NCBI GenBank assembly: GCA_016929395.1
Contig: JAFGIX010000069.1
Location: forward strand, 4,986-68,985
Reading direction: 5' to 3'
DNA: 64,000 nt
From: Candidatus Zymogenus saltonus
Lineage (GTDB): Bacteria; Desulfobacterota; Zymogenia; Zymogenales; Zymogenaceae
Of the stretch, positions 210-63,362 are shown one piece after another; within the stretch, counting starts at the first letter, position 1; every line of letters starts with the position of its first letter. The notes under the pieces were generated by a model that saw nothing but the letters and a program-made list of their open reading frames with translations, did no database searches and had not been told where the DNA came from. A program made the translations under genes and the position numbers.

Positions 210-1508
210 ATGAAGGTCGTAAAATATTTTCTCGCGGGGCTGGGGATCATCTTTCTCCTCCCGGTTCTCCTCATCTCCGTTATGCTGATCTACTGGGATC
301 TTCGCTCCCCGCCCCCCTTCGAGATCGATCCGGTCTTAAAGCTTGAAAACAGGGTGGCCGTTCCCCACGGCGATGATCCCAGGACGCTCCACAAGTCCAA
401 CACGGACATGGTCTTCTACAACGGATCGTTTTTCCTTATCCACGCCCGGACGAAGTGGCACCTGGAGGACAAAAACGGGGCCCTCATCGTCCAGAGGTCC
501 AACGATGCCGTAAACTGGGAAGAGGTTGCAAGCATCACCGTCCCGGACACGGACGTAAGGGACCCGAAGTTCGCCGCCATCGATGGCAGGCTCTTCGTCT
601 ACTTTCTACCCAACTTCCTATTCGACCCGGAGCCGATGACCACCTACTGGACGGTCAGCGACGACGGGGTCAACTGGGAGACGCCCAAGGAGCTCGATAC
701 GATAGCTGTGGTTGACCGCCGCGGGGACAGTACGGCGGGGAAGGTCACGTCCGGCGGGTGGAACCTGTGGAGGCCTAAGACCAAAGACGGGAAGAACTGG
801 TATGTGATGGCCAGCGGCAACAAGAAGAGGGCGGAGGTCGGCGTCGGGTACGGCGGGAAGATCGAGGGGGACGATGTGGAGGACGAGGGAACGACGCATA
901 TGATAGTCCTCTTAAGGTCGAGCGACGGTGTCAACTGGGAGGAGGTGTCGGAGGTCTACGTCGCCCGCGGCCTCTTCGAGCCGTGCATGGAGTTTCTGCC
1001 GGACGGCCGGATCATCTCGGCAATCCGATGCAGCAGCCTCGGCACCGGCGGGTACGCCTTCGGCAATCCAACGGCGAACACGATCATCGCCGTATCCTCA
1101 GAGCCGTATAAGGAGTGGAAGTACTCCTACAGCTTCATAACGAGGCTCGACGGCGCCACGCTCTTCCCCGTTAACGGGAGGATATTCGCCGTGGGGAGAA
1201 ACCACATGGGCCCGAGGTTTGACATGGGCAATCACCTGGCGACGAAGAGGACCGCCTTCTACGAGGTGAAGGAGAAGGAGCTGGTATTTCTTTTCGACCT
1301 TCCCAGCAACGGCGACACATCGTACACCGGCGTGGTCAGGAGGGGCGACTACATCTACGCCAGCTACTACACCTGCCCCGTCGACAAGGACTACCCGTGG
1401 GTTGTGGGGGTCTGCTTCTTCCCGAAGACCGAGATTCGGGTGGTCAAGCTCTCCGCCAAGGGATTGCTGGAATACGCCGACAGGGTCGGGGCATCGGGCG
1501 GGAGGTAA
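210..1508 (+). CDS. BNR/Asp-box repeat protein, sialidase-like glycosyl-hydrolase fold, N-terminally membrane anchored
   Basis: 432-aa ORF with an N-terminal hydrophobic anchor (FLAGLGIIFLLPVLLISVMLIYW). Three Asp-box-like motifs S-x-D-x-G-x-x-W are present (SNDAVNWEE, SDDGVNWET, SSDGVNWEE). Periodic codon usage is consistent with coding. The internal ORFs of the other frames are GC-driven artefacts. Confidence 0.7.
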   Translation: MKVVKYFLAGLGIIFLLPVLLISVMLIYWDLRSPPPFEIDPVLKLENRVAVPHGDDPRTLHKSNTDMVFYNGSFFLIHARTKWHLEDKNGALIVQRSNDAVNWEEVASITVPDTDVRDPKFAAIDGRLFVYFLPNFLFDPEPMTTYWTVSDDGVNWETPKELDTIAVVDRRGDSTAGKVTSGGWNLWRPKTKDGKNWYVMASGNKKRAEVGVGYGGKIEGDDVEDEGTTHMIVLLRSSDGVNWEEVSEVYVARGLFEPCMEFLPDGRIISAIRCSSLGTGGYAFGNPTANTIIAVSSEPYKEWKYSYSFITRLDGATLFPVNGRIFAVGRNHMGPRFDMGNHLATKRTAFYEVKEKELVFLFDLPSNGDTSYTGVVRRGDYIYASYYTCPVDKDYPWVVGVCFFPKTEIRVVKLSAKGLLEYADRVGASGGR

Positions 1509-1850: not shown

Positions 1851-2110
1851 TTCGTGACCCCGCTTTTGCTGCAGGGGGGCTGGACAAAGTTTCACTGGTT
1901 TTCCGCTTCCCAAGGGGATGACGCTTTTCCTACAGGAATGATACCTATTCTGCCATTCTTGGTTTGACCGGGAATCCAGAAAAATATCAACTGGATTCCC
2001 GCTTCCGCGGGAATGACAGTATATACACTGTTACCGCAGCAGGGGGGAGCGTAAAAAGCTTCTGGATTTACGCTTTCGCTGGGATGACACGATATTCCCT
2101 GCTGCGTAAA
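1851..2110. repeat. cluster of REP-like hairpin-forming repeats (GGATTCCCG...CGGGAATGACA family), with about three degenerate ~65-90 bp units
   Basis: Units such as 'ctggattcccgcttccgcgggaatgaca', 'ggttttccgcttcccaaggggatgacg' and 'ctggatttacgctttcgctgggatgacacg' each contain a dyad. 'gcagcagggggg' is repeated at the start of units. The same family recurs at 62990-63185. Confidence 0.5.
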
Positions 2111-2340
2111 ACGGTGGTGTGAAACGGGTCTATGTTAGTCTTAGGCTTAGTGGATGGGTTTCTATTTCATTGAAAGGGAGAGAGGTTTTGCCCGCCTTGC
2201 CGCCCTCCCCGAACGGGAGAACGCTGCACTACCATAAGAAAGCGGCCGACAGATTTGCGATCTACTGCGTCACCCGGTAGGCGCCCCGTCATATTTCCAC
2301 AGAAAAATATCGTAAAAATATCAAAAAACTTAAAAAATCC

Positions 2341-6230: not shown

Positions 6231-8274
6231 GGCTGTAAAGGCGATAGGCCGTTCGGCGGTCTTGCGTTCGGCGGTTTTGATATCTTTCTTCCTTATCCTG
6301 TCGCTGGCACTGTTTCCCCTTGCCGGCTCGGCGGTCGCCGCCGGGGAAAAGGGGAAGGCGCCCGATATGCCCAACACCGACATCACCATACCGTGGGATG
6401 AGTTCAAGGCGCTGATAGAGAAGTTCTTCGAGGAGGAACCGACCCCGCCCACGCCTCCTCCGGTCGAGCTGTCCGTCAAGGAGGCAAAATACACGGCCGA
6501 TCTCTCGCCAGATCTTATCACCGTAAACGCCGACCTTGACGTTATCACCTTCGGTGAGGGTTGGCGGGAGCTTCGGGTCATCGGGGACGGGGCCTCCCTC
6601 GTCTCGCTTACGGTGGACGGGAAATACGCCCCCACGAAGACGAAGGGCGATTCGGTCTACGTCTATCTGAAGGGGAACGGGGCGGAATCCAAAAGGTACA
6701 ATGTGGGGGCGCGCTTTTATGTCTTTGCACCGAAGACGCCGGGCCCACACAGTGTAACTTTTTCGGTTCCAGAAGCGGCCGTGGGCACGATAGCGATGGG
6801 CTACGACCGCAAGTTAGAGAACGTAGGCATAAACGGGATCGTCACATCGAGGTCGGCTGGAAGGGTAAACGGCGTCTTGAGGGGTGAAGGGGCGATAAAG
6901 ATAGACTACACCGTGTCAGCGCCGACGGAGGAGAGAGAGGCGGTCAGGAAGAGTAAACCCGAAGAATCTATAGTCCTCTCCGAGGTGATGACGGTGATGG
7001 ACGTCGAGGAGGAGGCGCTCTTTGTCGACGCCGTCGTTGACTTCGAGGTTCGGGGCGCCCCGACCACCTCATTTGAGATAGGGTTCCCCGATTATCTGGA
7101 GCTGATCGACGTCACGGGCGAGGGGGTCTCGGGATGGGAGCTCAACGAGAAGAAGAACGGTCTGAAGGTAAGGATCGGCTACGAGGTCGTCGGAAACTAC
7201 TCGCTGACGCTCTCCTTCGAGAAAGATTTTCCCGAGGGCACAAAAGAGATCGAGTTTCCGAAGATCGTGCCCTTAAGCGTCAAGCGGGACGCGGGCTACC
7301 TTGCCGTGGTATCGGGCGGCGGCTTTGAGATATCGGAGGGAAAGTATGCGAAGATCGCCCCCCAGGATCCCTCGGAGCTTCCAAGCAAGCTCTTGAACCT
7401 GAAGGGGCTTTCGCCGGTGCTGTCCTACAGGTACACCAACCCCAACTGGCTGCTGGCGCTTAATGTGGAGAAGGGGGAGCTTCTCCCGGTCCTCTCAGCC
7501 AACGCCGATTCGGCGAACGGCGTGGGCGTTGTCACGGCGGACGGAAAAATGGTGTTGAGGACCCACTTCTATATCCGAAACAGGAACCTACAGTACCTTA
7601 AGATCACGATTCCGGAAGGAGGGGAGTTCTGGTCGGCGAGGTTAAAGGGAAGGCCGCTCAAGGTATCCGTAGACAGCGAAAAGAAGATACTCGTTCCCCT
7701 TCCCCTGACGGTTGAGAGAAATGCCGAGCCATTTTTGGTGGAGACGGTCATCTTCGTCCCCGTGGACGAGTCGGACACCCTGGGAAGGATATTAATCGAG
7801 CTTCCCACGCTCAACATCCCCGTCTCGGAGATGATGCTGACCCTCTACCTCCCGGAAAGAAACGATTACGTTCTCTTCGGCGGCGATATGGAGGAGATCG
7901 AGTACTTTGAGAGGATCCTTGAAGAAAAGGACACCTCCTCGGCATTTTACCAGAAGAACATCAAGCTTAGGAGGGACGTCTACGAGAGGCAACAGATGCT
8001 GGAGGACGTGATCAACAAGGATGAGTCGATCGCCCCCGATTCGTCGACTGGCGAAGACGTTTCGTCCCAGTTTCAGATACCCTTAAGGGGGGAGATCCAC
8101 CGCTTCGTGAAACTCATCGTGATCTCGGAGAAGAGCCACGTCACGGCGAATTATGTGAACGGTCGCCTCATGGGAGGGATAAAGCTGGCAGTCTTTTTAG
8201 CCCTCGCCATCGCGCTTTTTATCGGGGGAAGGAGGTTTGTCAGGGAGATGGGCATCAGGCTTAAAAAGAGCTGA
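6220..8274 (+). CDS. large secreted protein with a C-terminal TM anchor (paralog B of the upstream gene)
   Basis: The ORF track starts it at 6172, but the signal peptide begins at MKNRAVKAIGRSAVLRSAVLISFFLILSLALFPLAGSAVAA (ATG 6220). That start overlaps the upstream stop by 11 nt. It carries the same N-terminal motif (IPWDEFKALIEKF) followed by a Pro-rich linker, and a C-terminal TM (IKLAVFLALAIALFIGG). Confidence 0.8.
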   Translation: MKNRAVKAIGRSAVLRSAVLISFFLILSLALFPLAGSAVAAGEKGKAPDMPNTDITIPWDEFKALIEKFFEEEPTPPTPPPVELSVKEAKYTADLSPDLITVNADLDVITFGEGWRELRVIGDGASLVSLTVDGKYAPTKTKGDSVYVYLKGNGAESKRYNVGARFYVFAPKTPGPHSVTFSVPEAAVGTIAMGYDRKLENVGINGIVTSRSAGRVNGVLRGEGAIKIDYTVSAPTEEREAVRKSKPEESIVLSEVMTVMDVEEEALFVDAVVDFEVRGAPTTSFEIGFPDYLELIDVTGEGVSGWELNEKKNGLKVRIGYEVVGNYSLTLSFEKDFPEGTKEIEFPKIVPLSVKRDAGYLAVVSGGGFEISEGKYAKIAPQDPSELPSKLLNLKGLSPVLSYRYTNPNWLLALNVEKGELLPVLSANADSANGVGVVTADGKMVLRTHFYIRNRNLQYLKITIPEGGEFWSARLKGRPLKVSVDSEKKILVPLPLTVERNAEPFLVETVIFVPVDESDTLGRILIELPTLNIPVSEMMLTLYLPERNDYVLFGGDMEEIEYFERILEEKDTSSAFYQKNIKLRRDVYERQQMLEDVINKDESIAPDSSTGEDVSSQFQIPLRGEIHRFVKLIVISEKSHVTANYVNGRLMGGIKLAVFLALAIALFIGGRRFVREMGIRLKKS

Positions 8275-8836
8275 TATTCTGAGACGTTAAAATATTCCCT
8301 CCTCAAATACGGATCGAATCGGCAAGATATTTAATGGGGGGGTAACGTCTCATTTAAAATTGACTATTGCAGCAATGAAGGGGGGTTTATCTTAGGAGGG
8401 AACGGGGACAGCCACAAATCTCAAAAATGCGAAGCGGGCGGAGGCTTGAAACGGCTGACGCCCGTTGTGTTTTTCAGTTGATACAGTTCCGGTTTTTTAA
8501 GCCGACCGGGTATTGAAAAAATCGGGAGTATAGCTAAGCGACTGAATGATTTAAGACACCTTTTGATATTTAATTGGGGGATGATGGTTTAAGAAAGGAT
8601 GGTGGCCTTTTGCTGGGCTGGGACTCTCAACGCAGATCGAGGCTTTCCCAACCCTCGCCTCATTTTTCGCCGGGCCCCCCTTCCCGCCCCCGGCATAATA
8701 TTCGCCTGCTCTCCTTGAGAAATGGCCCCTAATATAAACTGAGACCCCCCCTCTTTCAATAAAACAACCGACAGCCCAAAAACGGGGGATCAGATAACAT
8801 GGCCAGACCTGCCCACATGGCCCGACCTTCAGGGAC

Positions 8837-9794: not shown

Positions 9795-10547
9795 ATGAAG
9801 GTTCAGGTCTTGGGATCGGGGACGATCGTCCCCTCGGCTTTCCGGTCGGCGGCCGCCTATGCGGTGACGATAGGAGAACGAACGATTCTTCTCGACATGG
9901 GGCCGGGGCTCTTGAGGAGGATGGCCGAGGCGGGGATAGAGATCAACGGTGTGGACATGGTCTTTTTAAGCCACTTCCACCCGGATCATATCGGCGACTT
10001 CGTCCCTTTCGTATTCGCATCGAAATACCAGATCGGCCCGGCGAGGGAGAAAGACCTCACGATCCTGGCGGGCGTCGGGTTCGGCGAATTATACAACGGG
10101 CTGGTCGAGGTGTACGGGAAGTGGATTATTCCGGAGAGCTATGAGATACATATAGAGGAGATGGGGGTGGAGGTAAGGGAGTTCGACCGTTTTTCCGTAT
10201 CGACGACGAGGACGAACCACAATCCTGAAAGCATAGCGGTGAGGATTGATTCGGAGGGGCGGTCCCTCGTCTACACCGGAGACACCGACCTGTCCGAGAG
10301 CCTGATAGAGATCTCCGAGGGGGCGGATCTCCTTATCATCGAAACCTCCTTCCCGGACGGCATGAAGGTGCCGGGGCACCTGACGCCCGGCGAGGCGGCC
10401 GGGATCGCGGCCAGGGCGAAAGTGAAGAGGGTCATGCCGACCCATTTCTACCCGCCGATGGAGGATGTTGATTTGGCAGGCGCCTTCGGCGGGAGCTTTG
10501 AAGGGGAGGTGATCAGGCCCCGAGACCTGATGGTCATAGACATCTGA
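9795..10547 (+). CDS. MBL-fold metallo-hydrolase
   Basis: SHFHPDHIGD (HxHxDH) motif. Start placed at MKVQVLGSG rather than the upstream in-frame extension. Confidence 0.8.
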   Translation: MKVQVLGSGTIVPSAFRSAAAYAVTIGERTILLDMGPGLLRRMAEAGIEINGVDMVFLSHFHPDHIGDFVPFVFASKYQIGPAREKDLTILAGVGFGELYNGLVEVYGKWIIPESYEIHIEEMGVEVREFDRFSVSTTRTNHNPESIAVRIDSEGRSLVYTGDTDLSESLIEISEGADLLIIETSFPDGMKVPGHLTPGEAAGIAARAKVKRVMPTHFYPPMEDVDLAGAFGGSFEGEVIRPRDLMVIDI

Positions 10548-24761: not shown

Positions 24762-26363
24762 TCAGGACCGCTCCTCTTCGAGCTCCATCAGGAGATCCTT
24801 TATCTTTTTGATCTTTTGATACACCGCCTCTTCCCGGGCCGGGACTTCTTCGGCCTCGATCTCGCCGATCCTCTTTTTGATGTAGTGGAGGTCCTTGAAC
24901 ATACGTGACCCCTTGAGCTCCACCATCTCCCCCGCTTCCGTAATCGAGACGCTCTGAAACTCCTTGTTCGTTTTGAGCTCCACCGTTTCTCCCCAGTGGG
25001 GTACGTAGGAGGTGAGGGAAAGCTCCGACTCCAGGGCCCGGGCGAAGGAGAGAGACGCCCTTTCCTCCCCGTGGACAACGAAGACCGTCGGGGAGTCTCC
25101 GCGGAAGTGGGACGCCCAATCCAAAAGGCCGTTTCTGTCTGCGTGGGCGGAAAATCCGCCGATGGAAAAGATCTTCGCGTTTACCTTTACCTCCTCGCCC
25201 ATGATCCTGACCTCGTCCGCGCCTGTTACTATCATCCTTCCCAGGGTTCCCTCCGCCTGAAATCCCACAAATATCACAGAAGCCTCCGGGCGCCAGAGGT
25301 TGTGCCTCAGGTGGTGTTTTATCCTCCCCGCGTCGCACATCCCGCTGGCGGAGATGATTATCGCGCCCCCCGCCATCTGGTTTATCTCTATCGATTCCCT
25401 GGTTGACTGGGTGAACGTGAGGGTCGGGATATTCAGGGGGGTCTCCCCGGAGCTCAGGAGGGCGTGGGTTTCCTCGTCGAAGCACTGGGGATTTTCCTTG
25501 ATGATCTCGGTGGCGGAGGTGGCCATGGGGCTGTCAACGAAGATCGGAACATCATTCAGGTATCCGTCCCGGTAAAGCTCTGAGAGGTAAAATATTAGCT
25601 CCTGAGTCCGCCCCACGGCGAAGGAGGGGATTATTACCTTTCCGCCCCCATTTACGGTCGTGAGGATAGCCTCCTTGAGCTCCTCCTTGCTCTCTTCGAG
25701 GCTTTTATGGAGCCTGTTTCCGTATGTGGACTCGATAAAGAGGAAGTCCGCCCCGGTTATAATGCTCGGGTCCCTGATGATCGGCTGGTCCGGCACCCCC
25801 ACGTCGCCCGAGAAGACCAGCCTCGTCTCTCTCCCCTCGTCCTTAACGAACAGCTCCACCATTGCCGATCCGATGATATGGCCGGCGTCCCTGAAAACCG
25901 CCCTGATGCCCGTCGCCGCCTCGAACTCCTGATCGTAAAAGACCCTCTGGAAGTGCTTCAGGGATTTCACGGCGTCGTCCGTCGTGTAGAGGGGGGGCAC
26001 CTCGCTGAGGCCCCTCCTGAGGTTCTTGTTGCTTTTCCAGCTCGACTCCATCTCCTGGATGTGGGCGCTGTCTAAAAGCATGAGCTCGCAGAGGTCTGCG
26101 GTCGCCTTTGTGGAGAATATCTTTCCCCGAAAGCCGGACTTGACAAGCTTCGGGATAAGCCCGCTGTGGTCGATGTGGGCGTGGGTCAGGATCACCGCGT
26201 CTATCTCGGAGGGATCGTAGATGTACTCCAGTTGATTTCTCCTGGTGAGCTCCCTTCGCCCCTGGAACATGCCCGAGTCCACAAGGATGTTTGCAAGGTC
26301 GGTGCTTATCAGAAAGGACGACCCGGTAACGGTCCTGGCTCCGCCGATAAATGTAACTCTCAT
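24762..26363 (-). CDS. beta-CASP family MBL ribonuclease (RNase J / CPSF-like)
   Basis: HAHIDHSG motif with beta-CASP and RNA-specificity regions, 533 aa. Confidence 0.85.
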   Translation of the reverse strand: MRVTFIGGARTVTGSSFLISTDLANILVDSGMFQGRRELTRRNQLEYIYDPSEIDAVILTHAHIDHSGLIPKLVKSGFRGKIFSTKATADLCELMLLDSAHIQEMESSWKSNKNLRRGLSEVPPLYTTDDAVKSLKHFQRVFYDQEFEAATGIRAVFRDAGHIIGSAMVELFVKDEGRETRLVFSGDVGVPDQPIIRDPSIITGADFLFIESTYGNRLHKSLEESKEELKEAILTTVNGGGKVIIPSFAVGRTQELIFYLSELYRDGYLNDVPIFVDSPMATSATEIIKENPQCFDEETHALLSSGETPLNIPTLTFTQSTRESIEINQMAGGAIIISASGMCDAGRIKHHLRHNLWRPEASVIFVGFQAEGTLGRMIVTGADEVRIMGEEVKVNAKIFSIGGFSAHADRNGLLDWASHFRGDSPTVFVVHGEERASLSFARALESELSLTSYVPHWGETVELKTNKEFQSVSITEAGEMVELKGSRMFKDLHYIKKRIGEIEAEEVPAREEAVYQKIKKIKDLLMELEEERS

Positions 26364-26594: not shown

Positions 26595-27848
26595 ATGCCT
26601 CTTTTAGATTACCCCATGTTGAGAAATGTGGAGGTTATTCCTGTAGACCTAAAGGGCAAACCGGGCGTTGCCCTAAGGGACCCCCTTTGCTATGCCGAGG
26701 AGATGATAGCCCTCCCCAGCGATGCGCTGGCGGTTCTCCAGTTTTTCGACGGGAAGAGGAGCATCGACGACATCTTGAAGGAGATTCACGTTCAATACGG
26801 CGGAGAGGGCGTAATCAATATAGAGGATATAGAGACCCTGGCGGTAAGCCTCGATGATCACCTCTTTCTGGTAAGCGAGAGATTCTTGAGGGAGAAGCGC
26901 AGGATCGATCAGGAGTTCTACCGCTCCGATATACGCCATTCGGTTCATGCGGGTCTGAGCTATAACAGCGATCCCGAAGGGCTGGTTGGGGAGCTGAGCT
27001 CCTACTTCTCGAAGGCGGCGCCGGTCTCTCAGGAAATCGCTGGAACGGGGGACGGCCTCAGGGCCGTGATAGCGCCTCATATCAGTATAGCGTCCGGGGG
27101 AGAGTGTTTCGCCCACTCCTACAGCGTGGTAAAGGCGTCGCGCAAGGCCGACCTCTACGTCATCCTCGGGATCGGCCACGCCGGCCTCGAAAACCTCTTT
27201 GCGGGGACGAAGAAGGACTTCGAGACCCCCCTTGGAACGGTAAAGACAGATACCGAGTTTATGGATAGACTGAGCGTGGGATTCGGCGGTGAAAACGGCG
27301 GCAGGCTCTTTTCGGGGGAGGCGCTCCACAGGACGGAGCATACCATCGAGTTTCAGGCGGTCCTTCTGAAGTATATCTTCGGAGAGGAGCCCTTTGTCAT
27401 CGCCCCTATCCTCACCTCCTTTCCCTACCAGCTTGTCGTCGAGGACAGGTTCAAAGACGATAAAGAGCTGATAGAGCAATTCATCTCGGCGCTGAGGAGC
27501 GAGATCGGGTCGTATTCGGGAAGGGTCGTTATTATCTCCTCGGTCGATTTCGCCCACGTCGGCGTCAAGTACGGGGCCGAAAAGCCGTTAACGGCCGAAG
27601 AGCTCGAAGACGTAAAGAGGCGCGATGACGAGATGATCGAGATCATCTGTGAAGGCGATGCGGAGAGATTCGCCTCACACGTAGGCGAGGATGACGACAA
27701 GCGGAACATATGCGGGTTTTCGTCGATATATATAATGTTGAGGGTCATCGAGGGATTGAAGGGAAGGCTTTTGAGATACGACAAGACGATCATGGACAAC
27801 CAGAACTCCACCGTTACGTTTGCGGGGATGGCGTTTACGGATAATTGA
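26595..27848 (+). CDS. MEMO1-family protein (AmmeMemoRadiSam system protein B-like) with a ~100-aa N-terminal extension
   Basis: Memo-family core with His/Asp/Cys motifs (GIGHAG, DFAHVG). Confidence 0.75.
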   Translation: MPLLDYPMLRNVEVIPVDLKGKPGVALRDPLCYAEEMIALPSDALAVLQFFDGKRSIDDILKEIHVQYGGEGVINIEDIETLAVSLDDHLFLVSERFLREKRRIDQEFYRSDIRHSVHAGLSYNSDPEGLVGELSSYFSKAAPVSQEIAGTGDGLRAVIAPHISIASGGECFAHSYSVVKASRKADLYVILGIGHAGLENLFAGTKKDFETPLGTVKTDTEFMDRLSVGFGGENGGRLFSGEALHRTEHTIEFQAVLLKYIFGEEPFVIAPILTSFPYQLVVEDRFKDDKELIEQFISALRSEIGSYSGRVVIISSVDFAHVGVKYGAEKPLTAEELEDVKRRDDEMIEIICEGDAERFASHVGEDDDKRNICGFSSIYIMLRVIEGLKGRLLRYDKTIMDNQNSTVTFAGMAFTDN

Positions 27849-62941: not shown

Positions 62942-62989
62942 GAAAAAGGTGTATGAAAAAGAACACTACTTGTTTTCTATTCCCCGTTT

Positions 62990-63185
62990 GACAAGGGGAA
63001 CGATTATTTCGTAATTCCCGACTCGATCGGGGATCAAATATCCTGTCATTCCCAACTCTATTGGTAATCCATTATTCTGTCATTCCCGACTTGATCGGGA
63101 ATCCAGATAGATATTCATCCCTACATACGCAGGGACAGGCTGGATTCCCGCTTCCCAAGGGAATGACATATAATGTTACTCCCTT
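62990..63185. repeat. second cluster of the REP-like hairpin repeat family (TGTCATTCCCGACTTGATCGGGAATCC / GGATTCCCGCTTCCCAAGGGAATGACA)
   Basis: Three units with internal dyads. Same family as 1851-2110. Confidence 0.5.
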
Positions 63186-63362
63186 GTTTTTGCTCCCAAA
63201 TAGATATGGAATCCATTAAAGATGTTAGACAAAAAAATACCAGAAAAAGGGGCGTGTGTCAAGAAAGGGGTGAAACGACTTTTAGTAAAACCGCCGCCGA
63301 AATTGACACCAAAAAGTATCTGTGATACATTTAGTCAATTAAAAAATATCTTGGGGGTCTTT

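Follow-up and report, generated by a model that had tools for sequence, protein, structure and literature searches.

The best-described relatives of the repeats reported here are the CGTC-tagged REPs, whose units consist of an unpaired tag (CGTC, TGTC or CCTC, with CGTC changed to TGTC in many), a stem of 8–9 bp that starts with an A-T and a T-A pair, a loop of 4 nt in family 1 and 5 nt in families 2–4, and a CCA tail (Di Nocera 2013, PMC3733652). These elements are multi-copy, with tens to thousands of copies across a host genome, and occur mostly as dimers in which the tags lie on the outside ('HH') of a variable spacer, while clusters and head-to-tail arrays are rare except in Neisseria and Wolbachia (PMC3733652). 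CGTC repeats are listed in five phyla, many REPs are argued to be transcribed, and CGTC repeats have no associated transposase, with no RAYT being flanked by them (PMC3733652). In Neisseria, the CGTC-1 repeat is dRS3 (PMC3733652), which is reported to serve there as a target of a filamentous-phage recombinase (PMC11893778). SsnA, a GIY-YIG nuclease of 94 aa, binds the NTS (CGTCATTCCCGCGMAVGCGGGAATCYRG), which extends dRS3 to 28 nt, when this is single-stranded DNA, and makes its cut a few nucleotides upstream of the motif (Chenal 2025, PMC11893778). Binding depends critically on the C that follows the palindrome and cutting on the three bases that precede the palindrome, while the RNA form of the motif is not bound (PMC11893778). 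Across phyla, Ssn genes are themselves flanked by NTS-type motifs (PMC11893778). No dedicated transposase has been found so far for the CGTC-type REPs, hence the interest in how they spread.

The window, by which we mean the whole 64-kb stretch analyzed here from the Deltaproteobacteria/Desulfobacterota MAG Candidatus Zymogenus saltonus, contains 9–10 units of the form YGTC-ATTCCCGN-(loop 4–5)-NCGGGAAT-CCAG in a fuzzy scan with the full unit, and these are very likely local accumulations of the known CGTC/TGTC-tagged REP family that includes Neisseria dRS3/NTS and the Ssn-related motifs. All of the units are confined to two intergenic clusters, with no others found by fuzzy scans in the 64 kb, and the portion of the genome that was read (64 kb plus an extension of about 5 kb) thereby gives 9–10 units at two loci with the consensus YGTCATTCCCG-N6-7-CGGGAATCCAG. 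Built of four parts, each unit is directional: the unpaired tag YGTC opens it and the unpaired tail CCAG closes it, and between them an 8-bp stem (ATTCCCGN/NCGGGAAT) encloses a loop of 4 or 5 nt. The preliminary description had reported hairpin repeats in two intergenic clusters, and this is borne out, as the strings it quoted are all in place and 8 units with no more than 4 mismatches are present where 0.08 are expected (100 dinucleotide shuffles, maximum 1). ctggattcccgcttccgcgggaatgaca sits at 1991–2018 (minus-strand reading TGTCATTCCCGCGGAAGCGGGAATCCAG), tgtcattcccgacttgatcgggaatcc at 63078–63104 and ctggattcccgcttcccaagggaatgaca at 63140–63168. Not only the whole units but also ATTCCC-N5-12-GGGAAT exceed the shuffled sequences (3 in the window against 0.16 expected, a count that 0 of 100 shuffles reach). 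The GGAATGACA 9-mer by itself is unenriched in the window, with 17 matches against 14.6 expected. The initial estimate of about three units per cluster is corrected to four in cluster 1 and five, perhaps six, in cluster 2, the sixth possibly lying at about 62975–63003. The units and the features that surround them are as follows.

1895–1923, minus strand: decayed unit found by fuzzy scans, minus-strand sequence CGTCATCCCCTTGGGAAGCGGAAAACCAG, tag CGTC; −2.5 kcal/mol, z −0.2, no significant hairpin
1951–1979, plus strand: decayed unit of the 5-nt-loop type, TGCCATTCTTGGTTTGACCGGGAATCCAG, degraded tag TGCC, left half of a tags-outside dimer; −3.3 kcal/mol, z −1.1
1951–2018, no strand assigned: tags-outside dimer of a 5-nt-loop and a 4-nt-loop unit, 11-nt spacer, inverted repeat I2
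1991–2018, minus strand: intact unit TGTC-ATTCCCGC-GGAA-GCGGGAAT-CCAG, 8-bp stem, 4-nt loop
2062–2089, minus strand: decayed unit found by scan, TGTCATCCCAGCGAAAGCGTAAATCCAG, tag TGTC; forms no hairpin by itself
2193–2280, plus strand: remnant of a 312-aa PD40-repeat gene, about its last 25 codons (blastn, 2193–2450 to L253 8662–8921, 79%)
62996–63105, plus strand: head-to-tail array with a 34-bp period (TRF, 3.3 copies, 72% matches)
63010–63038, plus strand: decayed unit CGTAATTCCCGACTCGATCGGGGATCAAA in the tandem array, degraded tag CGTA; intermediate hairpin, 8-bp stem, loop CTTGA
63044–63072, plus strand: decayed unit TGTCATTCCCAACTCTATTGGTAATCCAT in the tandem array, tag TGTC
63078–63106, plus strand: intact unit TGTC-ATTCCCGA-CTTGA-TCGGGAAT-CCAG, 8-bp stem, 5-nt loop
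63078–63168, no strand assigned: tags-outside dimer, 33-nt spacer, inverted repeat I1 with 29-nt arms that are 76% complementary
63140–63168, minus strand: near-intact unit TGTCATTCCCTTGGGAAGCGGGAATCCAG, tag TGTC, right half of the dimer 63078–63168; weak hairpin alone, −3.3 kcal/mol
63191–63215, plus strand: strongly decayed unit, recognized through its orthologous copy in the relative L125 (there CGTCGTTCCCAACTTGATTGGGAATCCAT)
63234–63262, minus strand: sigma-70-like promoter TTGACA-17-TATTTT with TG, conserved in five related genomes

Intact hairpins are found in two units only. Folded as DNA, the unit at 1991–2018 reaches −9.0 kcal/mol (z −4.4, with 0 of 200 shuffles equally stable) and the unit at 63078–63106 reaches −7.6 kcal/mol (z −3.8), while in the units other than these two and 63010–63038 the predicted folds have lost the stem. 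The proposal that individual units fold thus stands for two strong hairpins and fails for most of the others, the decayed units probably being inert relics. Folding is also seen on a larger scale, as both whole clusters fold far better than their shuffles (z about −5), and the unit at 2062–2089 is enclosed by a 10-bp inverted repeat (CGCAGCAGGG/CCCTGCTGCG, 2035–2044 / 2097–2106) that is predicted as an outer stem when all of cluster 1 is folded. The nested inverted repeat of the preliminary description, cgggaatccag/ctggattcccg, is likewise present at 1969–1979/1991–2001. The tag of both intact units is TGTC (1991–2018 and 63078–63106), and a derived variant, CCCTTGGGAAGCGG, is common to the units at 1895–1923 and 63140–63168, which lie 61 kb apart and whose shared variant argues for copying between sites.

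The units resemble the CGTC-1 and CGTC-2 REPs. Most of them carry CGTC or TGTC at one end, the predicted stems of 8 bp start with an A-T and a T-A pair and enclose loops of 4 or 5 nt (GGAA or CTTGA), and they end in the tail CCA(G), such that the unit at 1991–2018 fits the description of CGTC-1 and the unit at 63078–63106 fits that of CGTC-2. The likeness extends to their arrangement, as there are two tags-outside dimers (gaps of 11 and 33 nt) of the kind that in this family are often heterodimers with variable spacers and no flanking transposase. Some differences are also apparent. Clusters and head-to-tail arrays, rare among CGTC REPs outside Neisseria and Wolbachia (PMC3733652), are the form taken here by both loci, one of which includes a 34-bp array, and the position of cluster 2 between divergent genes is unusual for these repeats. 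A Desulfobacterota MAG as host may or may not be an extension of the five phyla in which CGTC repeats have been listed.

As in Neisseria, the units form a directional hairpin, cluster between genes and include one exact dRS3 (ATTCCC-N8-GGGAAT), the only match in the window being at 1995–2014, with the 5-nt-loop units having N9 instead. The unit at 1991–2018 agrees with the NTS consensus at 26 of 28 positions, its two mismatches (a T in place of the first C, and a G at loop position M) avoiding the critical positions, while the other window units have at least 5 mismatches. The bases reported to be critical to SsnA, a GTC ahead of the stem and a C behind it, are kept in the intact units. However, neither published search pattern recovers the 5-nt-loop variant GACTTGATC, which sets it apart from the Neisseria NTS/SRM motifs. 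The NTS has 0 matches in the window at no more than 1 mismatch, the search criterion of the original paper, and the SRM pattern (HGTCWY-N0-2-YYVSBRH-N0-5-WNVSBRG-N0-2-RNCYNB) also has 0, as it accepts the canonical NTS and rejects both intact window units. The same pattern rejects the 5-nt-loop 29-mer TGTCATTCCCGACTTGATCGGGAATCCAG, which flanks GIY-YIG genes in two metagenome loci (L151 and L199), and is therefore narrower than the family, so that counts made with it will underestimate family size. Unlike the Neisseria NTS system, no ssn gene lies within the 64 kb.

The array at 62996–63105 comprises 3–4 cluster-2 units, including those at 63010–63038, 63044–63072 and 63078–63106. Cluster 1 had been credited with direct repeats of about 65 bp, which are detectable and weak, with 54% identity over 81 aligned columns, and this identity stems from the embedded unit together with a GCWGCAGGGGGG box. 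The box lacks significant enrichment, as its 3 occurrences exceed an expectation of 0.86 but are also reached in 8 of 100 shuffles, and neither the box, the 65-bp repeats nor the other non-unit blocks of cluster 1 have copies elsewhere in the data searched with blastn. Within cluster 1, matches to other loci are confined to the dimer at 1951–2018, which aligns at 75–88% over 60–80 nt with many of them. In essence, the clusters are intergenic mosaics like the NIMEs of Neisseria and the BIMEs of E. coli, built from palindromic units of either orientation with other short repeated blocks in between, and like them they are tied to local rearrangement. They depart from both in that similarity among the non-unit blocks of cluster 1 is only 54%, with no further copies turning up in the searched data, and in that BIME units are of the GTAG type and linked to RAYTs, whereas the tags here are TGTC or CGTC. 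The original assignment as REP/BIME or MITE-like elements is accordingly kept for REP-type palindromes in BIME/NIME-like mosaics and given up for MITEs, as no target-site duplications are found.

The family reaches well beyond this genome. An exact 29-mer of the unit at 63078–63106 occurs in at least 120 metagenome contigs and the general unit form in at least 120 viral contigs, which supports the view that the units belong to a very widely dispersed family. We sampled 240 such loci, chosen solely for carrying a unit. These loci yield 158 distinct 28-nt variants, of which 94–99% retain any given one of the eight stem pairs, and double compensatory changes are seen at five of the pairs, which together indicate that the hairpin is under selection family-wide. 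In one locus from a Proteobacteria MAG (L130, 15764–17441), three units of the family bracket apparent toxin-antitoxin genes, the candidate ORFs, assigned by eye, being possibly MazF/PemK-like and possibly of the PIN-domain type. A spurious ORF in the same locus (...VIPAKAGIQ...LDSRFRGND...) is the typical translation of such repeats.

Within the window, cluster 1 is intergenic and follows two tiny membrane ORFs ahead of the promoter of a TetR gene, while cluster 2 places 5–6 units in 433 bp between divergent genes. The latter lies between the promoter at 63234–63262 and the start of a MaoC-like gene (62929), and is therefore presumably part of a 5′ UTR. Comparison with relatives, whose GTDB label is Thermodesulfobacteriota, reveals turnover at this position. 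Synteny at the MaoC site is conserved in five relatives. In two of them (L127 and L128) there are no units, the promoter running directly into the ribosome-binding site across about 120 bp of intergenic sequence, while L125 (94% protein identity) has one unit where the window has 5–6. Alignments and a scan of L125 show that, of all the units, the one at 63191–63215 alone has an orthologue in this close relative, and no unit was found in the 20 kb read for each of L126–L129. At the corresponding promoter-to-MaoC position, L129 carries a different palindromic insert (about 9850–9960) with arms of about 24 nt, TTAAGGTGACACCATACTTAATTA / TAATTAAGTATGGTGTCACCTTAA, which suggests that hairpin elements from more than one family tend to settle at the MaoC site.

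Such a position raises the question of whether the units act mainly as RNA hairpins that stabilize, terminate or modulate neighboring genes and are kept for that purpose. In its favor, cluster 2 probably belongs to a transcribed 5′ UTR of about 300 nt and many REPs are transcribed according to Di Nocera 2013 (PMC3733652), and the MaoC-like gene may be affected at the RNA level. As the main role of the units, however, we consider this unlikely. A terminator scan finds no terminator-like site inside either cluster, most of the window units no longer fold, the orthologous genes in L127 and L128 do without such elements, and the exact sequence is common to many unrelated contigs in which it stands beside unrelated genes. 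Moreover, SsnA does not bind the RNA form of its motif (PMC11893778). Rfam, at its gathering thresholds, recognizes no family in the window.

The TetR site has also been rearranged. We compared it with two relatives (L253 and L254) found through P0122, a member of a 90% cluster, in which the neighboring 432-aa protein is 89% identical; the next homologue of this protein, at 69%, is too distant for a comparison of the site. Both relatives have a single perfect unit, oriented the other way round, and after it an intact 312-aa gene with PD40 repeats (Pfam), which in L253 occupies 7809–8747. The 28-mer of the unit at 1991–2018 is identical in L253 with its orientation opposite. In the window, the 5′ part of this gene is lost and cluster 1 stands in its stead, the remnant of the gene persists at 2193–2280, and the ORF at 2119–2280 ends in ...NGRTLHYHKKAADRFAIYCVTR compared to ...DGRTLYYHKKMGDRFVIYSVSR in the relative. 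The truncation is also present, with 0 mismatches, in an independent Logan contig (L004), and the Logan contigs from SRR13394437 agree with the window at every position, truncation included. The boundaries of these contigs lie within the perfect units at 2018, 1995 and 63102, and beside one at 63124, which indicates that the repeats fragment short-read assemblies. As a sign of copy number the breaks are suggestive and ambiguous, as a perfect unit could cause them by being multi-copy or merely by being palindromic. The two sites are evolutionarily unstable, with units gained, one unit inverted and a neighboring gene deleted. The 432-aa protein (210–1508, plus strand) carries the NCBI name exo-alpha-sialidase and has no Pfam match; its homologues in Asgard archaeal MAGs (Promethearchaeota, Thorarchaeota and Lokiarchaeota) are 50–54% identical, an unusually close relationship across domains.

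When ORFs beside units in the 240 loci were clustered, GIY-YIG genes tied with phage structural proteins, owing to recurrent related prophages in the viral sample and to long ORF calls that run into units, and the nuclease link was therefore assessed by an HMM search combined with distances to units. Ten Ssn-like genes were found in the 240 loci, 7 of them within 75 nt of a unit and 5 flanked on both sides at 19–50 nt, with the tags outside and the gene in either orientation. The GIY-YIG genes flanked by units encode about 90 aa, and the four flanked genes that were scanned are single-domain GIY-YIG proteins (Pfam PF01541, E 1e-15 to 1e-16). The exact 29-mer of the window directly flanks such genes in L151 (552–906) and L199 (7404–7761), and this unit-gene-unit order is typical of the Ssn system, whose single-domain GIY-YIG genes are of the cd10448 type.

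The identity of the flanked gene also bears on whether these are classical REP/BIME elements made and moved by a RAYT, an association that the preliminary description had proposed to look for. Being short extragenic palindromes in inverted dimers and BIME-like mosaics, the units look the part, but a RAYT origin is very improbable. Their tag is TGTC or CGTC rather than the GTAG of RAYT-linked REPs, no RAYT is flanked by CGTC repeats (PMC3733652), a search of the 57 window ORFs yields no transposase family, and the gene that identical units flank elsewhere is a GIY-YIG nuclease. The 57 non-overlapping window ORFs are ordinary chromosomal genes (TCA-cycle enzymes, PtsI, FadD, ABC transporters and Mla proteins among them), with no transposase, integrase, RAYT, recombinase or phage gene, and neither tblastn nor a six-frame hmmsearch finds a GIY-YIG gene in the window.

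Tags-outside dimers are the standard module of the family. In the 120 metagenome loci, 62 of 82 adjacent unit pairs are arranged with the tags outside at gaps of 2–53 nt, and 53 of the 62 are heterodimers of a 4-nt-loop and a 5-nt-loop unit; both window clusters contain a dimer of this tags-outside type (1951–2018 and 63078–63168). Since the same ends surround the dimers and the GIY-YIG genes, gene-less dimers and nuclease cassettes share ends. The sequence directly 5′ of each tag is T-rich and G-poor. Spacers vary between loci in both sequence and length, while the dimer ends are conserved. An origin of the units as MITEs from a DDE-type insertion sequence could account for the resemblance of the dimers to elements of about 70–90 bp with inverted ends, and for sites that are filled or empty among relatives. 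It is nevertheless even less probable than a RAYT origin, given the variable spacers between conserved ends and a window that contains no transposase. The check for target-site duplications gave none of at least 4 nt at 49 dimers, against 2.7 in controls with shuffled pairing, which argues against a classical MITE. That the units are attachment sites for a filamentous-prophage site-specific recombinase, as reported for Neisseria dRS3 (PMC11893778), is the least credible reading of all, for although the unit segment 1995–2014 is an exact dRS3, the window has no recombinase or phage genes and nothing is inserted at the units.

How a CGTC/TGTC-tagged family of this kind may behave can be outlined from the SsnA work (Chenal 2025, PMC11893778). 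Here, intact units would fold when the DNA is single-stranded, as during replication, during repair or in incoming DNA. A cognate Ssn, encoded elsewhere in the genome, would bind the folded unit by way of its stem sequence and of the C that follows this stem, and would cut a few nucleotides 5′ of the tag. Such cutting may limit or shape recombination and possibly spread the units. From the conserved critical bases and the flanking of nuclease genes by identical units in other contigs, we infer that a cognate Ssn encoded outside the window may act on the intact units in this organism. A further, more tentative suggestion, which we think could well be wrong, is that the tags-outside heterodimers are gene-less miniature versions of unit-ssn-unit cassettes, moved in trans by Ssn via single-strand cuts 5′ of the tags. 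Several observations are consistent with such mobility, namely the same ends around either a spacer of 2–53 nt or a GIY-YIG gene in either orientation, the lack of target duplication, the T-rich, G-poor 5′ flank where SsnA cuts, and the CCCTTGGGAAGCGG variant in two distant units. If it were true, Ssn would be the missing mobilizing enzyme of the CGTC-type REPs, and the window would record its recent activity in the gain of units at the MaoC site and in an inversion together with the loss of the 312-aa gene at the TetR site.

The repeat family is real but already described, and its presence here is in that sense an ordinary finding. What is new is confined to the 5-nt-loop variant missed by the SRM pattern, a clear pair of rearranged sites and, perhaps, the Desulfobacterota MAG as host lineage. 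Filled, empty and rearranged sites, along with the ends shared by dimers and GIY-YIG cassettes, bear on how the CGTC-type REPs spread. For practical purposes, the clusters are to be masked as REP-type repeats in annotation, as they break short-read assemblies and generate spurious ORFs, one example being the 52-aa ORF at 1964–2122 (...LDSRFRGND...FAGMT...), a mere translation of the repeats.

Two other genes of the window merit a brief description. A 533-aa metallo-beta-lactamase/beta-CASP protein (24762–26363, minus strand) reaches 427 bits with the NCBIfam model for type VII CRISPR-associated Cas14, below the cut-off of 800, and 307 bits with archaeal aCPSF1. A homologue of AmmeMemoRadiSam system protein B (26595–27848, plus strand) begins with an N-terminal stretch that is PqqD-like (NCBIfam, E 3e-6), which hints at a fused RiPP-recognition element.
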